7,524 nt of DNA, from positions 1 to 7,524 of IMG/VR virus record IMGVR_UViG_2693429642_000014, one strand, 5' to 3'. The position numbers and the translations under genes were made by a program. Every line of letters begins with the position of its first letter. Positions within the stretch are counted from its first letter, which is position 1. Under the pieces are notes generated by a model. It had not been told where the DNA came from. It did not search any database and was given only the letters and a program-made list of their open reading frames with translations. The DNA comes from a virus. Its lineage: Duplodnaviria; Heunggongvirae; Uroviricota; Caudoviricetes. Below, in pieces: positions 1 through 7,524 of this stretch.

Positions 1-618
1 GCTGCATCTGTCCTTACGGATATCCGTGGTGGGTTTATCGAACTCATCCGCCACAGCCCCGCCCGTGTAACCACACTCATCAGAGCGGTAGGTCCACATA
101 CAGGTGTTCGCCAGCATGATACGACCGGGAAACAGCGCCCCGTCCGTCTCGGTCAGTGTGGCCAGCACAAACGAGGCCGTCATGGCTGTCAGCTGCGACA
201 TCTGCTCCACCACCCAGCGGTCACTCAGCTCCTGCTCCGGGTCCGCCTCCGGATTGCCCGCAACGAAATTCACCGCATCCAGAAAACGGGCATACACCCG
301 GCGGCGGACCACCGTGGCCCCCACCAGGCTCTGCAAATCCTCCGCCATTCCGGTGACAAGACCAAACAGATTGGACACCGTCAGCAACGGTCTGGCACTG
401 CTGCCCTTCCCGCTCATCTCAAAACCGCTACCGTCAATCGGGTATGCCTGATATTGCCGCCCCTGCCAGGTGACCGGCTCCCCTTTTTCATTCAGCTCAT
501 TGCAGAAAAAATACCGCTCACCGCCCTGCACCGTCAGGTCGATTTCCCAGAGCACCACCCGCGGTGACTGCTCTGATTTAACCGACTCGTTCAGACTTTC
601 TTCGTGAATATCCTGCAT
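1..618 (-). CDS. L: minor tail protein L (lambda gpL family); partial, C-terminal ~25 aa lie beyond the window start
   Basis: Reverse-strand translation from ATG at 618..616 gives MQDIHEESLNESVKSEQSPRVVLWEIDLTVQGGERYFFCNELNEKGEPVTWQGRQYQAYPIDGSGFEMSGKG...PGRIMLANTCMWTYRSDECGYTGGAVADEFDKPTTDIRKDRCS, open to position 1. Matches remembered lambda gpL (MQDIRQETLNE...VVLWEIDL...GERYFFCNE...KGEPVTWQGRQYQ...PGRIMLANTC.WTYR.DECGY) block for block. An alternative in-frame ATG lies at 630..628. Not in the ORF track because no stop falls inside the window. Confidence 0.85.
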   Translation of the reverse strand, partial: MQDIHEESLNESVKSEQSPRVVLWEIDLTVQGGERYFFCNELNEKGEPVTWQGRQYQAYPIDGSGFEMSGKGSSARPLLTVSNLFGLVTGMAEDLQSLVGATVVRRRVYARFLDAVNFVAGNPEADPEQELSDRWVVEQMSQLTAMTASFVLATLTETDGALFPGRIMLANTCMWTYRSDECGYTGGAVADEFDKPTTDIRKDRCS

Positions 619-630
619 ATATCCGCCCAT

Positions 631-654
631 AAAAAAGGGGCGCAGACGCGCCCC
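631..654 (-). terminator. rho-independent terminator (minus-strand sense), likely the porin moron terminator
   Basis: Plus strand reads AAAAAA GGGGCGC AGAC GCGCCCC. On the minus strand this is a perfect 7-bp GC-rich stem, 4-nt loop, then T6, about 175 nt downstream of the porin stop and directly abutting the L start region. Confidence 0.7.
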
Positions 655-749
655 GAACAATAAAAGTCCAATTTAAAATAAAACCAATAAAGGTAATAAC
701 AGAAAGTTAAATCAGCACATGCCAGATGGCAATTGCTGATCGCAGTGAC

Positions 750-772
750 CAATGAAAACTGTGTTTTCATTG
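750..772. repeat. perfect 10-bp inverted repeat (hairpin) in the porin 3' flank
   Basis: Plus 750..759 CAATGAAAAC and 763..772 GTTTTCATTG are exact reverse complements separated by 3 nt (TGT). No flanking T-run on either strand, so not a classical terminator. Confidence 0.5.
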
Positions 773-827
773 ATACAGGCCGCCTGTAAGGGCAGACGGC
801 CCGTATTTATTAACTTATCAGCAATAA

Positions 828-1991
828 TCAGAACTGATAAGTCATACCCACAGCAACGATATTATCTGTCGCAACACCGGCTTTCCGGGTAAATTCACTT
901 TCATCAATCAGGTTAATTTTATAATCAACATAGGTGGACATATTCTTGTTAAAGTAATAAGTCGCTCCGACATCAATATATTTAACCAGATCCTGATCGC
1001 CATGGTTCACACCACCAACCATAACATCCTGTCCGCGGGACTGAAGGTAGGCCAGGGACGGGCGCAGACCAAAATCAAACTGATACTGCAGTACCGCTTC
1101 AAAGTTTTGCGCTTTATCTGCAACTCCTTTATCACCAAAGGTCGTCAGATTCTGAGTTTCGGAATATGTTGTAGCCAGGTAAAGGTTGTCAGCATCGTAT
1201 TTTAGTCCGACTCCCCACATCTCAGCGTGTTTACCTTTTGCAACACTACCGGAATCAACAACGATCTGCTTTTCAGTCACTTTACCGGTTAAAGGATCAG
1301 TTTGTTCAATCGTCAGAGTACCATTCAGACCTTTTTCCTGATTATTGGTTCGGTCCGCATTAATATATGCGGCAACGATACCAAAACCTTCATATTCATA
1401 ACTGGCTGAGAAACCGTGACCATCACCATTAGCTTTCCGGAGATCACCCCGATCATTTTTACCCTGGTACTGTGCCGCAAAATTCAGGCCATCGACAAGC
1501 CCAAAGAAATCTGTATTACGATAGGTTAATACCCCGGAAGTACGGGCTGTCATGAAGTTATCGGTCTGGGTCCAGCCATCACCGCCAAACTCTGGTAATA
1601 CGTCAGTATAAGAACCAACATCGTACGCAATACCATAGTTACGACCATAATCAATGGTGCCAAACTCACCAAACTTCAGACCTGCAAATGCAAGACGGGT
1701 TTTATTACCCGCAGCACCCTCTGATTCAGCTTTATTACCAGAGAACTGATATTCCCACTGACCAAAACCAGTCAACTGGTCATTAATCTGAGTTTCACCT
1801 TTAAAGCCCAGACGTGCGTATGTCTTATCTCCATCATCCCCCTTATCACTGGAGAAATAATGGAGTGCAGTTGCACGCCCATACACATCAAGTTTATTGC
1901 CATCTTTATTGTATACTTCTGCAGCCTGCGCCCCCGCTGCAAAAATTACAGCTGCTGCCACAGCTGAAAGTGCCACTGTCATTTTTTTCAT
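828..1991 (-). CDS. outer-membrane general porin, OmpC/OmpF/PhoE superfamily, closest by eye to the NmpC/Lc/OmpD prophage-type porins; 387-aa precursor with predicted 23-aa signal peptide
   Basis: ORF with ATG start and AAGGA Shine-Dalgarno about 8 nt upstream. N-terminus [23 protein letters not shown]|[12 protein letters not shown] is a classic Sec signal with AQA cleavage site and porin mature start. Conserved porin blocks present: [108 protein letters not shown], and C-terminal YQF. Gene is markedly more AT-rich than the flanking tail genes. Confidence 0.92.
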
Positions 1992-2046
1992 GATTTAATC
2001 CTTATTTAAACTGAACTATTCATGCATAGAGATGTCATGAACAAAA

Positions 2047-2104
2047 CTCAAAATATTGTAAATTAAATTACGGGTTCAATTTTTATTTTGTTTCAAAATG
2101 TAAA
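2047..2104 (-). promoter_or_regulatory. putative OmpR-binding boxes and promoter region of the porin gene
   Basis: Minus-strand sequence TTTACATTTTGAAACAAAAT (plus 2104..2085) matches the first 16 nt of the E. coli ompC C1 OmpR site as I remember it (TTTACATTTTGAAACATCTA). A second similar element TTTACAATATTTTGAG lies at plus 2062..2047. Both sit 55-115 bp upstream of the porin ATG in an AT-rich intergenic region. The -35/-10 hexamers could not be placed confidently. Confidence 0.4.
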
Positions 2105-2197
2105 AAAACAACTTTGATAGCACTTTATGTCAAGACAAAACAAAAATAACAAGCAAGCAAATTAATAAACGATGCTTTTAGGTTTTTTCTCAAAAAC

Positions 2198-2539
2198 TTA
2201 TCTTATTACCTGTTCCATCATACAACTGAAATCGCTGTACCGGGCGTTATCCGTAACACTCCACTCCCGGCACACCACCCTGACCGTCCGGTTATGTTTC
2301 GGGGGCTTCCACAAAAAAGCCCGGTAACCACCATGCCATGACAGAAACGCGGACAGTGCCTCCCGCTCAGCATCCGTTGTCACCCGAAAAACCACCTGAA
2401 AGGTCTTCAGTTGCGCATTCAGTCCTGCCGGACGACGTTGCTGATAACCGTCGCCAAACTTCACCGTCATCACCGACGGTTTCTCCGTCACCTGCATCCC
2501 TTCCCGGGGACACCAGTGAAGGGTCTTAATCTCATCCAC
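2198..2539 (-). CDS. M: minor tail protein M (lambda gpM family)
   Basis: Translation ...IKTLHWCPREGMQVTEKPSVMTVKFGDGYQQRRPAGLNAQLKTF...HGGYRAFLWKPP...VVCREWS aligns with remembered lambda gpM (MKTFRWKVKPGMDVASVPSVRKVRFGDGYSQRAPAGLNANLKTY...HGGWKSFLWTPP...VTCAKWS). Start is GTG at 2539..2537 (in-frame TGA immediately upstream), preceded by GGAGGAA 6 nt upstream, and it overlaps the H stop codon. Confidence 0.9.
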   Translation of the reverse strand: MDEIKTLHWCPREGMQVTEKPSVMTVKFGDGYQQRRPAGLNAQLKTFQVVFRVTTDAEREALSAFLSWHGGYRAFLWKPPKHNRTVRVVCREWSVTDNARYSDFSCMMEQVIR

Positions 2540-5500
2540 TCAGCATTCCTCCGTCACGACGCATGGATAACATCACCGCCTGTACCCGCTGGTCAATCAG
2601 CTGCACAAGACTGCCTGCCGCCTCCGGCCCTATCTGTCCGTTAGCCCCGTCATTCTGAATGGCGATATGGTAGACCGGGGAATACACCAGACCGGCACTG
2701 CCGTTCATACTGCCCACCGCGCGTACACCCAGCGAGCCATCCGCCGCCCGGGTCAGGGGCATTATGGCTTCAGGTCCTGCTTCCCCCATCAGCCCGGCCC
2801 CTTTTGCAAAGGCAAAGTACGTGGGCGTATCCACAATACTGTTGCTGTACGCGCTCAGGTTTGCCGAGGTATACACGCCGCCTTTTGCATTGGCCACCGC
2901 ACCGCCCAGCCAGTCACCAATGCTGCCAATAAATCCTCCTGCACCGGACATACTGTTTGCCGCCGTCTTAATTCCGTTGACAATCGCGGCATTCATAAGA
3001 ACTTTTGATATTTCCTGCAGCACTGATGAGGCCCAGTTGCGCCATTCCACTTTATTCCCGTTCAGCATCTCCGTGATGTTATTCACCATCCCTGAGATAC
3101 CCTCCGTCGCAAGCTGTGCTGCCTGTGAGGCGTAATCGGACGCATTATCCACCCAGTTACTGAGCCCCTCCTGCAAGCCTTTCTGCCAGTCCGCACGCTG
3201 CACATCCGATTCGGCATAAAAGGCTGCCTGGTCCTTAAGGCGTTCGCTCAGATACTGCGCGTTCTGTGCCCGTGCCTGTCTGTAAAAATCCTCACTGATA
3301 TCCCCGGCCTGATACTGAGACTGAAGGTCCGCATCCTTCTGGCGGAAGCTGTCGCGGATCTGCTGCAACTCCCGCATGCGTTCCCTGGCTCGTTCTCCCT
3401 GCCCGTACCCCAGCAGTTCGGCTTCATTTGATGCACGCGCAGCCACATTATCATTCTTCAGGGTCTCTTCCCGGGATCGCAACTGTTCCCGGATTTTTTG
3501 CTGGTCAATCAGGGCCGCGTTACGCAGCAGTTCCTGCTTCTGCATCTCCGTCAGGGTTTTCAGTTCGCCCTGCGCAGTCTGGTACTTCAGCTTCACCAGC
3601 TCTGTATTCTGACCCGCCAGTGCCAGTTGCTCTTTCTGCTGCTTCAGTAGCCGGGAAAAACTGTCTTCCGCTTTTTCCGTCTCTGATTTTCCACCCCGGG
3701 ATTTGGGTTTGTTCGCCTCGTTATTACGCCAGGCTTCCAGAGCATTACTGATATAACGCTGTCTCGCCTCCTGATACGAATCCCCCACAAAACCAAGGTC
3801 ATCCGCCGCATACCCCAGCCGGGCACGCTCTTTTTCCTCCCCCTTCAGTCGGGACAGGGCCAGCTCACGTTCTGTTTTTGTCAGGGCGCTCTGCTGTTTA
3901 TCATCCAGGGTGGCCTGCGGCAGCCGTAACGGTACATTCACCAGTCCCTGACGCTGCTGAAGCAGTTCATTCCCCAGCCCCAGCAGACGGTTGAATTCCG
4001 TATGCTGGCCGTTCATGACCAGCAGTGACTGATACGCTTTATTCTGCTCTGCCGCCTGCTGACGAATTAACGCCACACGGCGATCTTCCAGTCCGGCAAG
4101 CACATCCTGAATGGACTGCGCCTTTTCCTGCATCTGTGCCAGACGGGACTGCTCAACAGCAAGCTGCTCTGTTGCCTGAGCAAGCCCTTCCGTTACAGTT
4201 TTCACCGAGGTCAGATGGTTTATCATGAATCCGTCACCGGTCGTCCAGCCCGGGTTCGCCAGAACATACTGATATCCTGCGATTTTTTCCTGCAGGGATT
4301 TCACCCGACTGGCCTGTTCATCAATCAGCCGGTTCTGCTCTGTCAGCGCCGCCCGTGTTCGTCCTTCATTATCTGAGGCTTCAGGCAAAGACATTGACGG
4401 CGTTTTATGCGCGATTTCATCTATCGTCAGTGCATACTGGCGCGCTGACTCCCTGGCCTGCTCCTGATTCTGGTACAGCGTATACCATGCTGCTGCCCCC
4501 AGCATCACCAGTCCGGGTACGCCACCAACCAGTCCCAACGCACCAGTCATCAGACGTGAGCCCACCGCCGTTGTACTGTTCAGCGCATTCTGGGCTGCGG
4601 TTCTGGCAGCAATATTTCTGTTCAGGCGTTCCTGTGTGGCCGCCAGACGGGCTTCTGCAGCAATCTGCATCTCCGTCCCGCGGGCTGCCGCCACAGCCTG
4701 CTGTGCACGGTACACGGCTGCCCTTGCCCGCGCCGTGGCAATCTGCGTCCCCCTGAGCTGTGCTTCCGCCAGTGCCACTTCATTACGTGCTGCCGTCACA
4801 AGTCCTGCCGTGGCAGACACCGCTCCGGAGGCCATATTGCCAAAGTACCGGGCAACCCCGACGGCAACCAGCGCACCCACGGCTGTTGCCACATTATCAA
4901 TCTGTCCGGCAACACCGTTCAGCACGCCGGAGAGCGTTTTTGTCACCCCGCTGGCCTCATTCGCGCCACCCACCCAGGCCATAAAGGCGTTTTCCACCTT
5001 TGTGATACTACCGGAAACCGTTTCCGGCATGGCCGCATATTCATCACGCAATACCCCCAGCTGGCTGATTAACGCAGGGACCACTTTATCCGCCGTCAGT
5101 TTGCCGTCGTCCGCCATCGCCTTAAGGTCTTTACGGGCCACGCCCATACCCGCAGCCAGTGCACGTACGATCCGATCTCCGCTTTCATTGACCGAATTAA
5201 ATTCCTCACCGCGTAACACCCCCTGTGCCAGCGCCTGGCTGAACTGGGTGATCACCGAGCCCGCCTCTGCCGTACTGGCACCGGAGATTTTCAGCCCCGT
5301 GGAAATGGCCTCCGTCACCTTCAGTACATCACCGGCACTGTAGCCATATTCACGCATTGAGGCTGCCGAGCGGGCAAACAGGGCCGCATTATCTGAAAAT
5401 GCCGTGCCCGTCCGCTGGCTGATATCCATCAGCACTTTCTGTGATGACGAAAATTCATCGGATGACTGCGACGCCTGTTTCAGTCGGGCATTCACGGAAC

Positions 5501-5774
5501 TCCATTCATCGGCCAGAGAAATCAGGTGCCCGGTGGCAAAGGCACCTGCAAATGCCCCCGCCGTTCCGGCAACTGAAGCGCGGATTTCCGTCAACTGGCT
5601 GTTCAGCTCAGCCAGGGCGCGTCGCTGCTCCCGGGCGACTGCGGCAGCCTGACGCCCGCCATTCTGCAGGGTCCGGTAATATTCACTGCCCATGCGGGCA
5701 GCCCGCTGGATCTCCGACTGGAATGACTGCGAATTTGCCGAAATTTTGATAATCAGTTCACGTAACGTCGCCAT
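2532..5774 (-). CDS. H: tail length tape measure protein (lambda gpH family), 1080 aa
   Basis: Long Ala/Gln/Arg-rich, coiled-coil-type ORF with an internal hydrophobic segment (GALGLVGGVPGLVMLGAAAW). C-terminal region ...NWASSVLQEISKVLMNAAIVNGIKTA...IAIQNDGANGQIGPEAAGSLVQLIDQRVQAVMLSMRRDGGMLSG aligns with the remembered lambda gpH C-terminus (...VVINNDGTNGQIGPAALKAVYDMARKGARDEIQTQMRDGGLFSG). ATG at 5774 is preceded by GGAGAAAGGTGA. Sits between the G/T chaperones and M as in lambda. Confidence 0.95.
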   Translation of the reverse strand: MATLRELIIKISANSQSFQSEIQRAARMGSEYYRTLQNGGRQAAAVAREQRRALAELNSQLTEIRASVAGTAGAFAGAFATGHLISLADEWSSVNARLKQASQSSDEFSSSQKVLMDISQRTGTAFSDNAALFARSAASMREYGYSAGDVLKVTEAISTGLKISGASTAEAGSVITQFSQALAQGVLRGEEFNSVNESGDRIVRALAAGMGVARKDLKAMADDGKLTADKVVPALISQLGVLRDEYAAMPETVSGSITKVENAFMAWVGGANEASGVTKTLSGVLNGVAGQIDNVATAVGALVAVGVARYFGNMASGAVSATAGLVTAARNEVALAEAQLRGTQIATARARAAVYRAQQAVAAARGTEMQIAAEARLAATQERLNRNIAARTAAQNALNSTTAVGSRLMTGALGLVGGVPGLVMLGAAAWYTLYQNQEQARESARQYALTIDEIAHKTPSMSLPEASDNEGRTRAALTEQNRLIDEQASRVKSLQEKIAGYQYVLANPGWTTGDGFMINHLTSVKTVTEGLAQATEQLAVEQSRLAQMQEKAQSIQDVLAGLEDRRVALIRQQAAEQNKAYQSLLVMNGQHTEFNRLLGLGNELLQQRQGLVNVPLRLPQATLDDKQQSALTKTERELALSRLKGEEKERARLGYAADDLGFVGDSYQEARQRYISNALEAWRNNEANKPKSRGGKSETEKAEDSFSRLLKQQKEQLALAGQNTELVKLKYQTAQGELKTLTEMQKQELLRNAALIDQQKIREQLRSREETLKNDNVAARASNEAELLGYGQGERARERMRELQQIRDSFRQKDADLQSQYQAGDISEDFYRQARAQNAQYLSERLKDQAAFYAESDVQRADWQKGLQEGLSNWVDNASDYASQAAQLATEGISGMVNNITEMLNGNKVEWRNWASSVLQEISKVLMNAAIVNGIKTAANSMSGAGGFIGSIGDWLGGAVANAKGGVYTSANLSAYSNSIVDTPTYFAFAKGAGLMGEAGPEAIMPLTRAADGSLGVRAVGSMNGSAGLVYSPVYHIAIQNDGANGQIGPEAAGSLVQLIDQRVQAVMLSMRRDGGMLSG

Positions 5775-5792
5775 TCACCTTTCTCCGGGCGT

Positions 5793-5813
5793 AAAAAAAC
5801 CGCCTCAGCGGTT
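5793..5813 (-). terminator. weak terminator-like hairpin between the T stop and H start (possible attenuator)
   Basis: Minus-strand sense reads AACCGC TGAG GCGGTT followed by TTTTT: 6-bp stem (4 GC pairs), 4-nt loop, T-run. Lies in the 47-nt gap between the T stop (5822) and the H ATG (5774). Confidence 0.3.
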
Positions 5814-5821
5814 CTCATCAT

Positions 5822-6136
5822 TCATGACTGTGCTGCAAAGCTCAGCGCGTCTTCCAGCGCCGCAAACGGATCCACCTCCGGCTTATCCTCATCCTCGCCC
5901 CAGCAGAGCATGGCGTCCTTCAGTGCAACATTCATCCCCTGTGCCCCGAAAACCGCTTTCACGATCTGTGCATTACGGATATCCCCGCGCTCATCACCCA
6001 GCGGGGATACCCTGTCGAACTCCATCCACATCATCGCCTCGCTCGCACTCAGGCTGTGCCGCAGTTCGGATAACGTGCGCCCCAGACGGAGCGCAAGTCG
6101 CATCAGAAAGCGTATTTCCGGGCGGGCTACTTTTTT
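5822..6136 (-). CDS. T: T portion of the G-T tail assembly chaperone fusion, reached by programmed -1 frameshift from G
   Basis: The -1 frame relative to G is open from the slippery heptamer through to TGA at 5824..5822. Shifting at A AAA AAG gives ...KKVARPEIRFLMRLALRLGRTLSELRHSLSASEAMMWMEFD..., continuous with the 93-aa ORF in the track (5822..6103). Position between G and the tape measure gene matches lambda G/G-T. Confidence 0.8.
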   Translation of the reverse strand, partial: KKVARPEIRFLMRLALRLGRTLSELRHSLSASEAMMWMEFDRVSPLGDERGDIRNAQIVKAVFGAQGMNVALKDAMLCWGEDEDKPEVDPFAALEDALSFAAQS

Positions 6137-6501
6137 CTGGCCGCCTCTCCATCGGCGATCAGATCCAGTGCCTGACGCAGCAACCGGGCATGTACCGGAC
6201 CATAGACGACCAGCACCTGCTCCCGATCGTCCGCAGTGAACACCCGCTGCAGATCCGTATCACACAGCACATCGCAGAACAGCGTCACATCCGCTTCCAG
6301 ATTACGGCGGGTTTTCGCCCCCCCCGACAGAGTTTCGTCACCCGTATCACCGTCATTAAGCACTTCCCGCCACAGATACCAGGCCTCTGCCGAAGGTTCC
6401 CGCAGCACCACGCTGACATTTTCCCATTCAGGCACCCGCACCGTTTTATGGCGAAACCCCGACAGTCTGGCCAGTGCCAGTGTTTTCAGATCCTTTTTCA
6501 T
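6127..6501 (-). CDS. G: tail assembly chaperone G (lambda gpG position)
   Basis: ORF ends ...GEAARKK* with the slippery site at its 3' end. I prefer the ATG at 6501..6499 (MKKDLKTLALARL..., GGGGA Shine-Dalgarno about 9 nt upstream, 14 nt after the V stop) over the track start at 6549, which would overlap V by 34 nt. Acidic, small protein as expected for gpG-like chaperones. Call rests on position and the frameshift architecture. Confidence 0.75.
   Translation of the reverse strand: MKKDLKTLALARLSGFRHKTVRVPEWENVSVVLREPSAEAWYLWREVLNDGDTGDETLSGGAKTRRNLEADVTLFCDVLCDTDLQRVFTADDREQVLVVYGPVHARLLRQALDLIADGEAARKK
6130..6136 (-). other. programmed -1 ribosomal frameshift slippery heptamer A AAA AAG
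   Basis: Plus 6130..6136 is CTTTTTT, i.e. A AAA AAG on the minus strand in the G zero frame. These are the last two sense codons before the G stop (TAG at 6129..6127). Same heptamer class as E. coli dnaX. Confidence 0.8.
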
Positions 6502-6515
6502 GATGACTCGTCCCC

Positions 6516-7247
6516 TTATCCGGCTGCTGCGCTCACAGTCACGGTGCATTCAACAGACGTCACACTCTGTGCCCTCTCTGCCGAATCGGTCACCACGCAG
6601 GTATATTTCCCCGCATCGGCGGACTGCGCGTTTGGCTTACTGAAGGTGTCAGCCGTCTGCCCCTCAACCGGCTGACCGTCCTTCTTCCAGGCGTATTTAT
6701 ACGGCGGCGTTCCCCCGTTGGCACTGACTGACATTGTCAGCAGCGCACCGGTATTCACGGTAAGTGTTTTATCCAGATTTTTCACAAACGCCAGCGGTAC
6801 CACAAAGGACACCGGTTTGCCTTTCAGACGCAGTGAAAACGTTGCTGCCACCACGCCGTTGGTACCGGATGACCAGGTGTGCTGACGCACTTCCGCCAGG
6901 AATTTAAAGCCCTTTCCGGACGGAAACTGCACCTTAAACGCATACAATGAGTCATTGTCATAGGCATCACGCAGGGCATTCTGGGCCTGATTCAGATAAA
7001 AATTACCCGACATGGAAATCTCGGACGATGCGCCCAGACCGTTGATGTTCTCCTGCTCCGTGGAGCAGAGCGTGGTCACATCAATATCCTGTTTCTGACC
7101 GGCGGTGAACTGGACTTCCTTGATGGAGCAGTCCAGGCGCAGATATTCCGCCTTCTCCATAGTTTCAGCAGTCGCCGGGGCAGATGAAATCATCACCTGC
7201 GTCAGCTGTGAACGTTCATACAAAGCAGACATTCGTAACCGGCTCAT
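6516..7247 (-). CDS. V: major tail (tube) protein with C-terminal Ig-like domain (lambda gpV position)
   Basis: First gene of the tail block, immediately upstream of G. The C-terminal ~80 aa (LTVNTGALLTMSVSANGGTPPYKYAWKKDGQPVEGQTADTFSKPNAQSADAGKYTCVVTD...) has the hallmarks of a bacterial Ig-like domain, as found at the C-terminus of gpV. No recognisable identity to lambda V in the N-terminal domain. Start is uncertain: ATG 7247 has GGAGG about 20 nt upstream (too far), with alternative ATGs at 7232 and further in. Confidence 0.7.
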   Translation of the reverse strand: MSRLRMSALYERSQLTQVMISSAPATAETMEKAEYLRLDCSIKEVQFTAGQKQDIDVTTLCSTEQENINGLGASSEISMSGNFYLNQAQNALRDAYDNDSLYAFKVQFPSGKGFKFLAEVRQHTWSSGTNGVVAATFSLRLKGKPVSFVVPLAFVKNLDKTLTVNTGALLTMSVSANGGTPPYKYAWKKDGQPVEGQTADTFSKPNAQSADAGKYTCVVTDSAERAQSVTSVECTVTVSAAAG

Positions 7248-7288
7248 TTAAACCGTCTGGTCTGTTTCCTCCGGCTCTACAAAAATAA

Positions 7289-7310
7289 TGTCCATCATTT
7301 TTAATGGACA
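7289..7310. repeat. 7-bp inverted repeat TGTCCAT(N8)ATGGACA just upstream of the transposase-like ORF (possible IS terminus or operator)
   Basis: Plus 7289..7295 TGTCCAT and 7304..7310 ATGGACA are reverse complements. Begins with TG, as IS termini often do, and lies 8 bp before the ATG at 7318. Confidence 0.3.
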
Positions 7311-7317
7311 CTATCGT

Positions 7318-7524
7318 ATGAAACACCGGACCTGGATCACTGAAGCTTTACGTCTTCACTTTGAAGAACATTTACCCCGGGTTGTGGCCGGGCGTCGCCT
7401 GGGTGTACCAAAATCAACAGTTTGTAGTATGTTCGTGCGCTTTCGGAGAGCTGGTCTTTCGTGGCCTTTGCCCGCAGGCATGTCGGAGCAGGAACTTGAT
7501 GCCTGCCTTTACGGACAATTTTCC
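7318..7524 (+). CDS. partial ORF (69 codons, open to window end): HTH N-terminus resembling IS21-family IstA transposase
   Basis: Translation MKHRTWITEALRLHFEEHLPRVVAGRRLGVPKSTVCSMFVRFRRAGLSWPLPAGMSEQELDACLYGQFS. The pattern (basic HTH with STV, then RA.AAGLSWPLP....EL...L) matches what I remember of IS21-family IstA N-termini, e.g. IS408-like ...STV.EYLRRAKAAG..WPLP..LDDAALEARLF. Divergent from the tail operon. No BLAST was possible. Confidence 0.5.
   Translation, partial: MKHRTWITEALRLHFEEHLPRVVAGRRLGVPKSTVCSMFVRFRRAGLSWPLPAGMSEQELDACLYGQFS

Follow-up and report, generated by a model that had tools for sequence, protein, structure and literature searches.

A predicted OmpR-type operator upstream of a porin moron in the tail operon of a lambdoid prophage

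The tail region of a lambdoid E. coli prophage contains a porin gene that is a classic moron, an AT-rich cassette with its own terminator between the tail genes M and L, and upstream of the porin's own predicted promoter lies a strongly conserved sequence, referred to here as box 1, which we predict to be an OmpR-type operator. The material analysed is a stretch of 7,524 nt from IMG/VR record IMGVR_UViG_2693429642_000014 (positions 1 to 7,524), hereafter the window. Sequence comparison suggests an architecture consisting of a single consensus-like site in promoter-proximal position on an ompD/nmpC-type core promoter, and not the three-site array of ompC. That OmpR can control a prophage porin was known before, from nmpC of DLP12, and the value of the present case is incremental. 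If OmpR does drive the porin, however, the cassette would represent a horizontally moving porin under the host's main envelope two-component system, and a natural example of a moron gaining host regulation by means of a single consensus operator at an activating distance. The porin make-up of lysogens would then change in an environment-dependent manner, with a bearing on phage receptor availability, antibiotic permeability and antigenic variation.

Every gene in the window lies on the minus strand, in the order major tail subunit, chaperones, tape measure (5774..2532), M homologue (2539..2198), porin (1991..828) and the start of L. The cassette and its immediate neighbours comprise the following features.

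2198..2539, minus strand: homologue of minor tail protein M, the upstream neighbour of the porin, which follows the tape measure gene and carries the annotation 'phage tail protein'.
828..1991, minus strand: porin gene, 387 aa, Lc/NmpC/OmpD clade.
631..827, minus strand: structured 3' region of the moron, about 200 nt from the porin stop codon to the terminator.
654..637 (stem) and 636..631 (T-run), minus strand: intrinsic terminator of the moron, GGGGCGCGTCTGCGCCCC followed by T6.
1..630, minus strand: beginning of minor tail protein L, which follows the moron and runs off the window; possible ATG codons at 630 or 618.

In phage lambda itself, M and L abut. Here an extra cassette, co-oriented with the tail genes, stands between them, with its own terminator and a deviant base composition: G+C content is 54–64% in the tail genes, 36–49% in the porin cassette and 24.5% in the upstream spacer of 206 nt that separates the M stop codon from the porin ATG. 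No terminator-like site was found between M and the porin. The moron's own promoter is predicted from sequence as a conserved -35/-10 pair. Other morons of lambdoid tail regions likewise have deviant G+C content, their own terminator and a co-oriented position between conserved tail genes; the present cassette differs from them in its cargo, a general porin, and in a promoter apparently assembled from regulatory elements of host porins. The M-porin-L arrangement recurs in E. coli prophages, where the NCBI pipeline names the gene "porin OmpC". This name is marginal, the NCBIfam 'porin OmpC' subfamily model giving 496 bits against a cut-off of 484. By sequence comparison the protein is nearest to the Lc/NmpC/OmpD clade and not to OmpC, with identities of 73% to Lc of PA-2, 70% to OmpD of S. 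arizonae, 63% to K-12 OmpC and 62% to K-12 OmpF. The closest chromosomal porins are just 65–67% identical, and the nearest of these loci adjoin a SECIS-containing gene, which we take to mark the fdnG neighbourhood of ompD. Related genes in phage records carry the names OmpD or NmpC. A literature search on this tail-region porin, RefSeq protein accessions included, found no publication in the library covered, and the cassette spacer is present in 93 of 5426 complete E. coli genomes (about 1.7%), Shiga-toxin strains included.

The control region lies within the 206-nt spacer, where the following elements were distinguished, from upstream to downstream with respect to the porin.

2113..2141, plus strand: putative relic of the micF promoter and its marbox, ATAGCACTTTATGTCAAGA as read on the plus strand; 25/29 identical to K-12.
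2085..2104, minus strand: box 1, predicted OmpR (OmpR/RstA-class) operator, TTTACATTTTGAAACAAAAT, at about -61..-42 of the predicted start.
2074..2079, minus strand: predicted -35, TTGAAC, following box 1 after a gap of 5 nt; identity 0.90 over 16 alleles.
2047..2062, minus strand: second element, TTTACAATATTTTGAG, 42 bp downstream of box 1, overlapping the spacer and -10 of the predicted promoter.
2050..2055, minus strand: predicted -10, TATTTT, with an 18-nt spacer; identity 0.98 over 16 alleles.
2041..2045, minus strand: predicted transcription start zone (about 2043), placed from the -10 distance and by analogy with the mapped 69-nt ompD leader.
2019..2041, minus strand: predicted 5' leader hairpin, UUCAUG-N11-CAUGAA.
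1999..2003, minus strand: Shine-Dalgarno sequence AAGGA, invariant in 16 alleles, 7 nt before the ATG.

Read on the porin strand, the spacer has the order GTCTTGACATAAAGTGCTATCAAAGTTGTTTTT-TTTACATTTTGAAACAAAAT-AAAAATTGAACCCGTAATTTAATTTACAATATTTTGAG, and box 1 itself consists of tandem 10-bp half-sites, TTTACATTTT (half-site a) and GAAACAAAAT (half-site b). Its first 16 nt are an exact copy of the OmpR site C1 of K-12 ompC (NC_000913.3, upstream sequence gcaTTTACATTTTGAAACATCTAtagcg, containing TTTACATTTTGAAACATCTA), and the published C1 oligonucleotide carries the identical ompC stretch (PMC2586830); the original prediction had asserted this identity, and it proves to be correct. A C1-like match with up to 3 mismatches is expected by chance 0.07 times in the window, and the longest word in common with the K-12 ompC-micF spacer, at 16 nt, exceeds the 13 nt that was the most seen in 500 dinucleotide shuffles of the spacer. 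An OmpR matrix of 20 columns, trained on F1, F2, F3, C1, C2 and C3, all taken from K-12 sequence, gives box 1 a score of 19.3 bits, the highest on either strand of the 7.5-kb window, to be read in the light of the low G+C content of the spacer, since OmpR sites are degenerate and AT-rich and matrix matches are less specific in such surroundings. Box 1 still ranks first, at 16.2 bits, when C1 is withheld from training; the training sites range from 13.7 to 20.2 bits, and the matches ranking after box 1 in the whole window reach about 12 bits. Five other alleles were scored as well, and in four of them the best same-strand site likewise begins 113 nt upstream of the ATG (DETEC-P1056: at this position only with the full training set). 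ChIP-exo of OmpR in E. coli K-12 yielded the motif KWWGTTACAT and the repeat GTTACATTTTGTTACAT (PMC5438342), and box 1 agrees with this repeat in having tandem 10-bp half-sites with xxxAC cores.

Comparative conservation is the strongest argument for reading box 1 as an OmpR site. Spacers between M and the porin were collected from E. coli genomes and IMG/VR contigs as 35 copies, representing 16 distinct sequences, whose identity to the spacer of the window falls as low as 72–78%, and far lower in the allele L116. TTTACAT stands at the same place in all of them. Over the 16 alleles, mean pairwise identity is 0.97 in half-site a against 0.76 for the whole spacer; other peaks coincide with TTGAAC, TATTTT, the hairpin arms (0.98 and 0.94) and the Shine-Dalgarno sequence. 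Half-site b is variable (0.68), occurring as GAAAC, GTTAC, CTTAC and GTTGC, and the AC core is kept in all but the last of these variants. Many alleles carry TTTACATTTTGTTACAT at box 1, matching the published repeat at 16 of 17 positions. These 16 natural alleles may also serve as ready-made operator variants for testing.

The spacer of L116 (IMGVR_UViG_2711768044_000001, 638-1200) is 233 nt long and much diverged, and box 1, the -35, the -10, the hairpin and the Shine-Dalgarno sequence are all kept in it. The porin cassette of L116 stands behind a clearly distinct, lambda-like M, and the tandem repeat TTTACATTCT/CTTACATTTT is retained at the position of box 1, which suggests that the M-L junction is a recurrent insertion point, or else that the cassette travels together with its control region.

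Among the six alleles scanned by simple sigma-70 scoring, TTGAAC-18-TATTTT is the top-ranking pair in four and takes third or fourth place in the remaining two; in L116, a deletion of 2 nt from the spacer leaves TTGAAT-16-TATTTT. From the distance to the -10 and the analogy with ompD, we infer that transcription starts near 2043, which would give a leader of about 52 nt. The gap between the OmpR site and the -35 is 5 nt for box 1, 5 nt for F3 and 4 nt for C3, counting bases in the K-12 sequences, and given the predicted start box 1 would occupy the position of these promoter-proximal OmpR sites of ompF (F3) and ompC (C3). The leader hairpin folds in all four alleles tested, with an energy that is not significant (z about -1), and L116 keeps the pairs through G-U changes. 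An alternative core promoter, with AATAGT as -10 (2020..2015) and a weak -35, is less well supported and would place box 1 at about -96..-77, a C1-like position. From either predicted promoter, box 1 would lie within about -100 to -40 of a start with a weak -35, as OmpR sites do at promoters of the ompC/ompF type. An ompC-type layout on this promoter, with box 1 acting as C1 at -100, was demoted to an alternative because TTGAAC/TATTTT scores better; the latter pair is also more conserved and matches the mapped layout of ompD. No CRP-like site better than 3 mismatches, which is the chance level, was found in the spacer.

The TTTACA...TTTTGA element that had been proposed as a second OmpR site is indeed present downstream of box 1, but does not hold up in that capacity. 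Its best matrix score is 9.1 bits, a value also reached at several unrelated places in the window, as compared with 16–19 bits for box 1, and in other alleles its TTTACA reads ATTAAA, AGTAAA or TTTTAA. The conserved sequence at this place is AATATTTT, which would fit a -10, and the element is more likely to be part of the promoter than an OmpR site. C2-like and C3-like sites were sought at 20/21-bp steps after box 1, where matrix scores were at background. A model with three contiguous sites of the ompC type was rejected, TTGAAC being out of phase with the half-sites and no second or third site on the porin strand rising above background. What survives of the suggestion that the porin is wired into EnvZ/OmpR osmoregulation is one predicted site, for which the C1 identity, matrix rank, conservation, -35/-10 context and nmpC precedent speak; the two-site form of the suggestion falls away.

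The cassette resembles ompC in the first 16 nt of C1, in the order and orientation of the micF marbox relic and in a weak -35 abutted by an OmpR site. It differs in that ompC has three contiguous sites and a divergent micF, whereas the cassette has one site and no micF gene, and in that a C1-like sequence occupies a C3-like position. Furthermore, about 120 bp between marbox and C1 are missing, the predicted leader shows no recognisable similarity to that of ompC, and the porins are 63% identical. The absence of a divergent micF-like gene, anticipated from the short intergenic space, is confirmed: with only 206 nt between the two genes, Rfam gave no MicF match even at E<=10, whereas true ompC loci of other genera give 105–114 bits.

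The putative micF promoter relic, 29 nt at 2141..2113 and absent from the original prediction, lies 8 nt upstream of box 1 and reads GTTTTGTCTTGACATAAAGTGCTATCAAA on the porin strand, including a TTGACA, against GTTTTGTTTTGACATTCAGTGCTGTCAAA in K-12. It is the best local alignment of the spacer with the K-12 ompC-micF spacer, ahead of C1, and its score of 38 compares with a mean of 21.1 and a maximum of 31 among shuffles (0/500 reach 38). The matching K-12 stretch is the Mar/Sox/Rob box of the micF promoter. The relic fits a degenerate marbox consensus with 2 mismatches, a fit that taken alone is at chance level in the window, and its core TCTTGACAnAAAGTG is kept among alleles. In ompC-micF loci of Enterobacter, Lelliottia and others, the element is found about 130 nt upstream of the C1 16-mer with 0–2 mismatches, and in K-12 the distance is about 100 nt; the relic and the C1-like box have the order and orientation seen in these loci of several genera. 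With 8 nt between them instead of about 100–130, the two sequences suggest that the cassette holds two conserved ompC-micF islands in their original order and orientation, collapsed and joined to a promoter and leader of the ompD/nmpC type. On this comparison the origin of the element is unusual, being mosaic. The spacer was also compared with 80 genome loci that encode related porins, in search of a chromosomal donor, and no locus has similarity beyond the two short islands. The possibility that a micF promoter survives on the plus strand was considered and rejected for want of an acceptable -10 at a suitable distance, the candidate ATTAAT (2161-2166) not being conserved in the alleles when inspected by eye.

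Among prophage porins, nmpC of DLP12 is a previously characterised OmpR target, confirmed by ChIP-exo and repressed, with expression 2.4-fold up in an ompR deletion strain (PMC5438342 and its supplement). We converted the ChIP-exo peak coordinates to NC_000913.3 by our own arithmetic, using a 777-nt offset derived from the ompF entry of that paper; the nmpC peak then falls about 58–118 nt upstream of the ATG and covers CTTACATCTTGAAATAATCA. This sequence lies 91–72 nt upstream in nmpC and lc, is identical to box 1 at 14 of 20 positions and is conserved in 51 phage copies. In the multiple alignment, however, the nmpC/lc box falls on the -35 region of the window, one step downstream of box 1. 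Such a shift of position would fit repression in nmpC and activation at the cassette. The cassette shares with DLP12 nmpC and PA-2 lc a prophage-borne porin of the same clade (73% identity), an OmpR-like box, the leader motifs TGACATC and AATAGTTCA, and a structured 3' region with a similar terminator. It differs in genomic setting, nmpC and lc being placed beside Q and lysis genes and the cassette in the tail operon, and in its control region, which in nmpC/lc extends over about 570 bp and in lc includes annotated CRP sites (J02580), whereas no CRP site is detectable in the cassette. Homology to the lc/nmpC upstream region was considered and set aside, as the local alignment is not significant alone (score 22, equal to the shuffle mean) and the similarity consists of collinear short motifs only.

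The predicted promoter of the cassette resembles that of Salmonella ompD: in both, a -35 TTGAAC is separated by 18 nt from an A/T-rich -10, a GAAAC half-site stands just upstream of the -35, and the leader starts with a hairpin. The ompD leader has been mapped and is 69 nt long (PMC3333887); in S. arizonae, TTGAAC-18-TAAAAA is correctly placed for the published start and the leader opens with a hairpin. Besides the longer leader, ompD differs in having a CRP-like site, centred near -81.5 as read from the sequence, which the cassette lacks. Chromosomal ompD (S. arizonae L018, 2831-2889; likewise L009 and L010) carries ATGAAACTTATTATTGAAC directly at the -35, a GAAAC/GAAC direct repeat resembling OmpR-family half-sites. 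The literature examined offered no evidence of OmpR control of Salmonella ompD.

The mechanism that we favour, with a confidence about evenly poised between acceptance and doubt, is that in the lysogen the moron's own promoter is activated by phosphorylated host OmpR bound at box 1, with late read-through contributing in lytic growth. OmpR-P would bind as a head-to-tail dimer and recruit RNA polymerase to the weak TTGAAC/TATTTT promoter, and expression of the phage porin in the lysogen would thereby be placed under EnvZ/OmpR control. In the lytic cycle the porin would also be transcribed by read-through from the late tail operon, since it is co-oriented with the tail genes and has no terminator in front of it. 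A single high-affinity site at an activating position would be expected to permit expression already at low OmpR-P, unlike the high-osmolarity switch of ompC, and the predicted response is closer to that of the high-affinity sites of ompF. A different, and in our view unlikely, reading is that no regulator uses box 1 and that it is conserved as a UP-like element rich in A/T, or simply as a piece of a porin promoter inherited from a common ancestor, with expression either constitutive or confined to read-through. The extreme AT-richness of the region would be consistent with this, as would the orientation of the porin and the lack of a terminator before it, and AAAATAAAA beside the -35 resembles a proximal UP subsite. 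However, a UP element does not require an invariant TTTACAT with its fixed C, most variants of half-site b retain the xxAC core (GAAAC, GTTAC, CTTAC, with GTTGC as the exception), and a cassette with its own terminator and a conserved -35/-10 pair is as expected for expression in a lysogen.

Even where box 1 is accepted as a real OmpR site, control could be of either sign, because nmpC is repressed by OmpR. Repression of the porin, whether by blocking access to a promoter that lies upstream or overlaps the site, or in concert with H-NS on the AT-rich spacer, would have the precedent of a porin of the same Lc/NmpC/OmpD clade, OmpR-bound nmpC with its mRNA raised 2.4-fold in the ompR deletion strain (PMC5438342), and a possible target in the TTGACA upstream of box 1 (2133..2128, porin strand). 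A promoter from that hexamer was nevertheless rejected, as no acceptable -10 lies at a workable spacing. Moreover, box 1 abuts and does not overlap the conserved TTGAAC/TATTTT pair and stands at an activating distance from it, whereas the OmpR-like box of nmpC/lc overlaps a TTGAAA that MAFFT aligns with the -35 of the window, so that the geometry differs; we consider repression distinctly unlikely. It is more doubtful still that the operator serves mainly another regulator of the OmpR family, most plausibly RstA (PhoQP-RstBA; acid, low Mg2+), or RstA and OmpR jointly as at csgD. In several alleles the sequence is TACATTTTGTTACA, which agrees with the RstA box TACATNTNGTTACA at every position, and RstA and OmpR sites are reported to overlap extensively at csgD (PMC4117788), but the copy in the window has 2 mismatches to the RstA box, for which 0.39 matches are expected and which is not beyond chance, and is identical instead to the footprinted OmpR site C1. 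Activation by OmpR from box 1 is the reading that we retain.

The 3' region between the porin stop codon and the terminator has a minimum free energy of -79.6 kcal/mol, compared with -46.6 for shuffles (z = -8.1), and forms four or five hairpins, with compensatory changes from G-C to A-U in the first of them in the allele PS2C. Its location corresponds to that of the stretch downstream of nmpC/lc, with which it has its ends in common. That stretch encodes the small RNA IpeX, which lowers OmpC and OmpF. IpeX has been mentioned on phage PA-2 (PMC8065619). By its structure and position, 631..827 is a candidate 3'-derived sRNA. A more far-reaching idea, which we put forward as highly speculative and hardly probable, is that the cassette constitutes a phage-borne "porin swap" module assembled from captured host control parts: a consensus OmpR/RstA operator, a conserved marbox of micF origin that is still bound by MarA, SoxS and Rob and conveys stress signals to the porin promoter, and a strongly structured, IpeX-like 3' RNA that lowers OmpC and OmpF. 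Were this true, envelope stress would cue the lysogen to exchange its host porins for that of the phage; host porins serve phages as receptors and let antibiotics into the cell.

The porin coding sequence is mosaic in its turn. Compared with the allele of E. coli G1/2, whose upstream spacer is 100% identical to that of the window, the window porin differs at 13 amino-acid positions, every one of them among the C-terminal 75 residues (828-1052), and this segment is nearly identical to that of the otherwise diverged L116. The pattern points to recombination between porin alleles.
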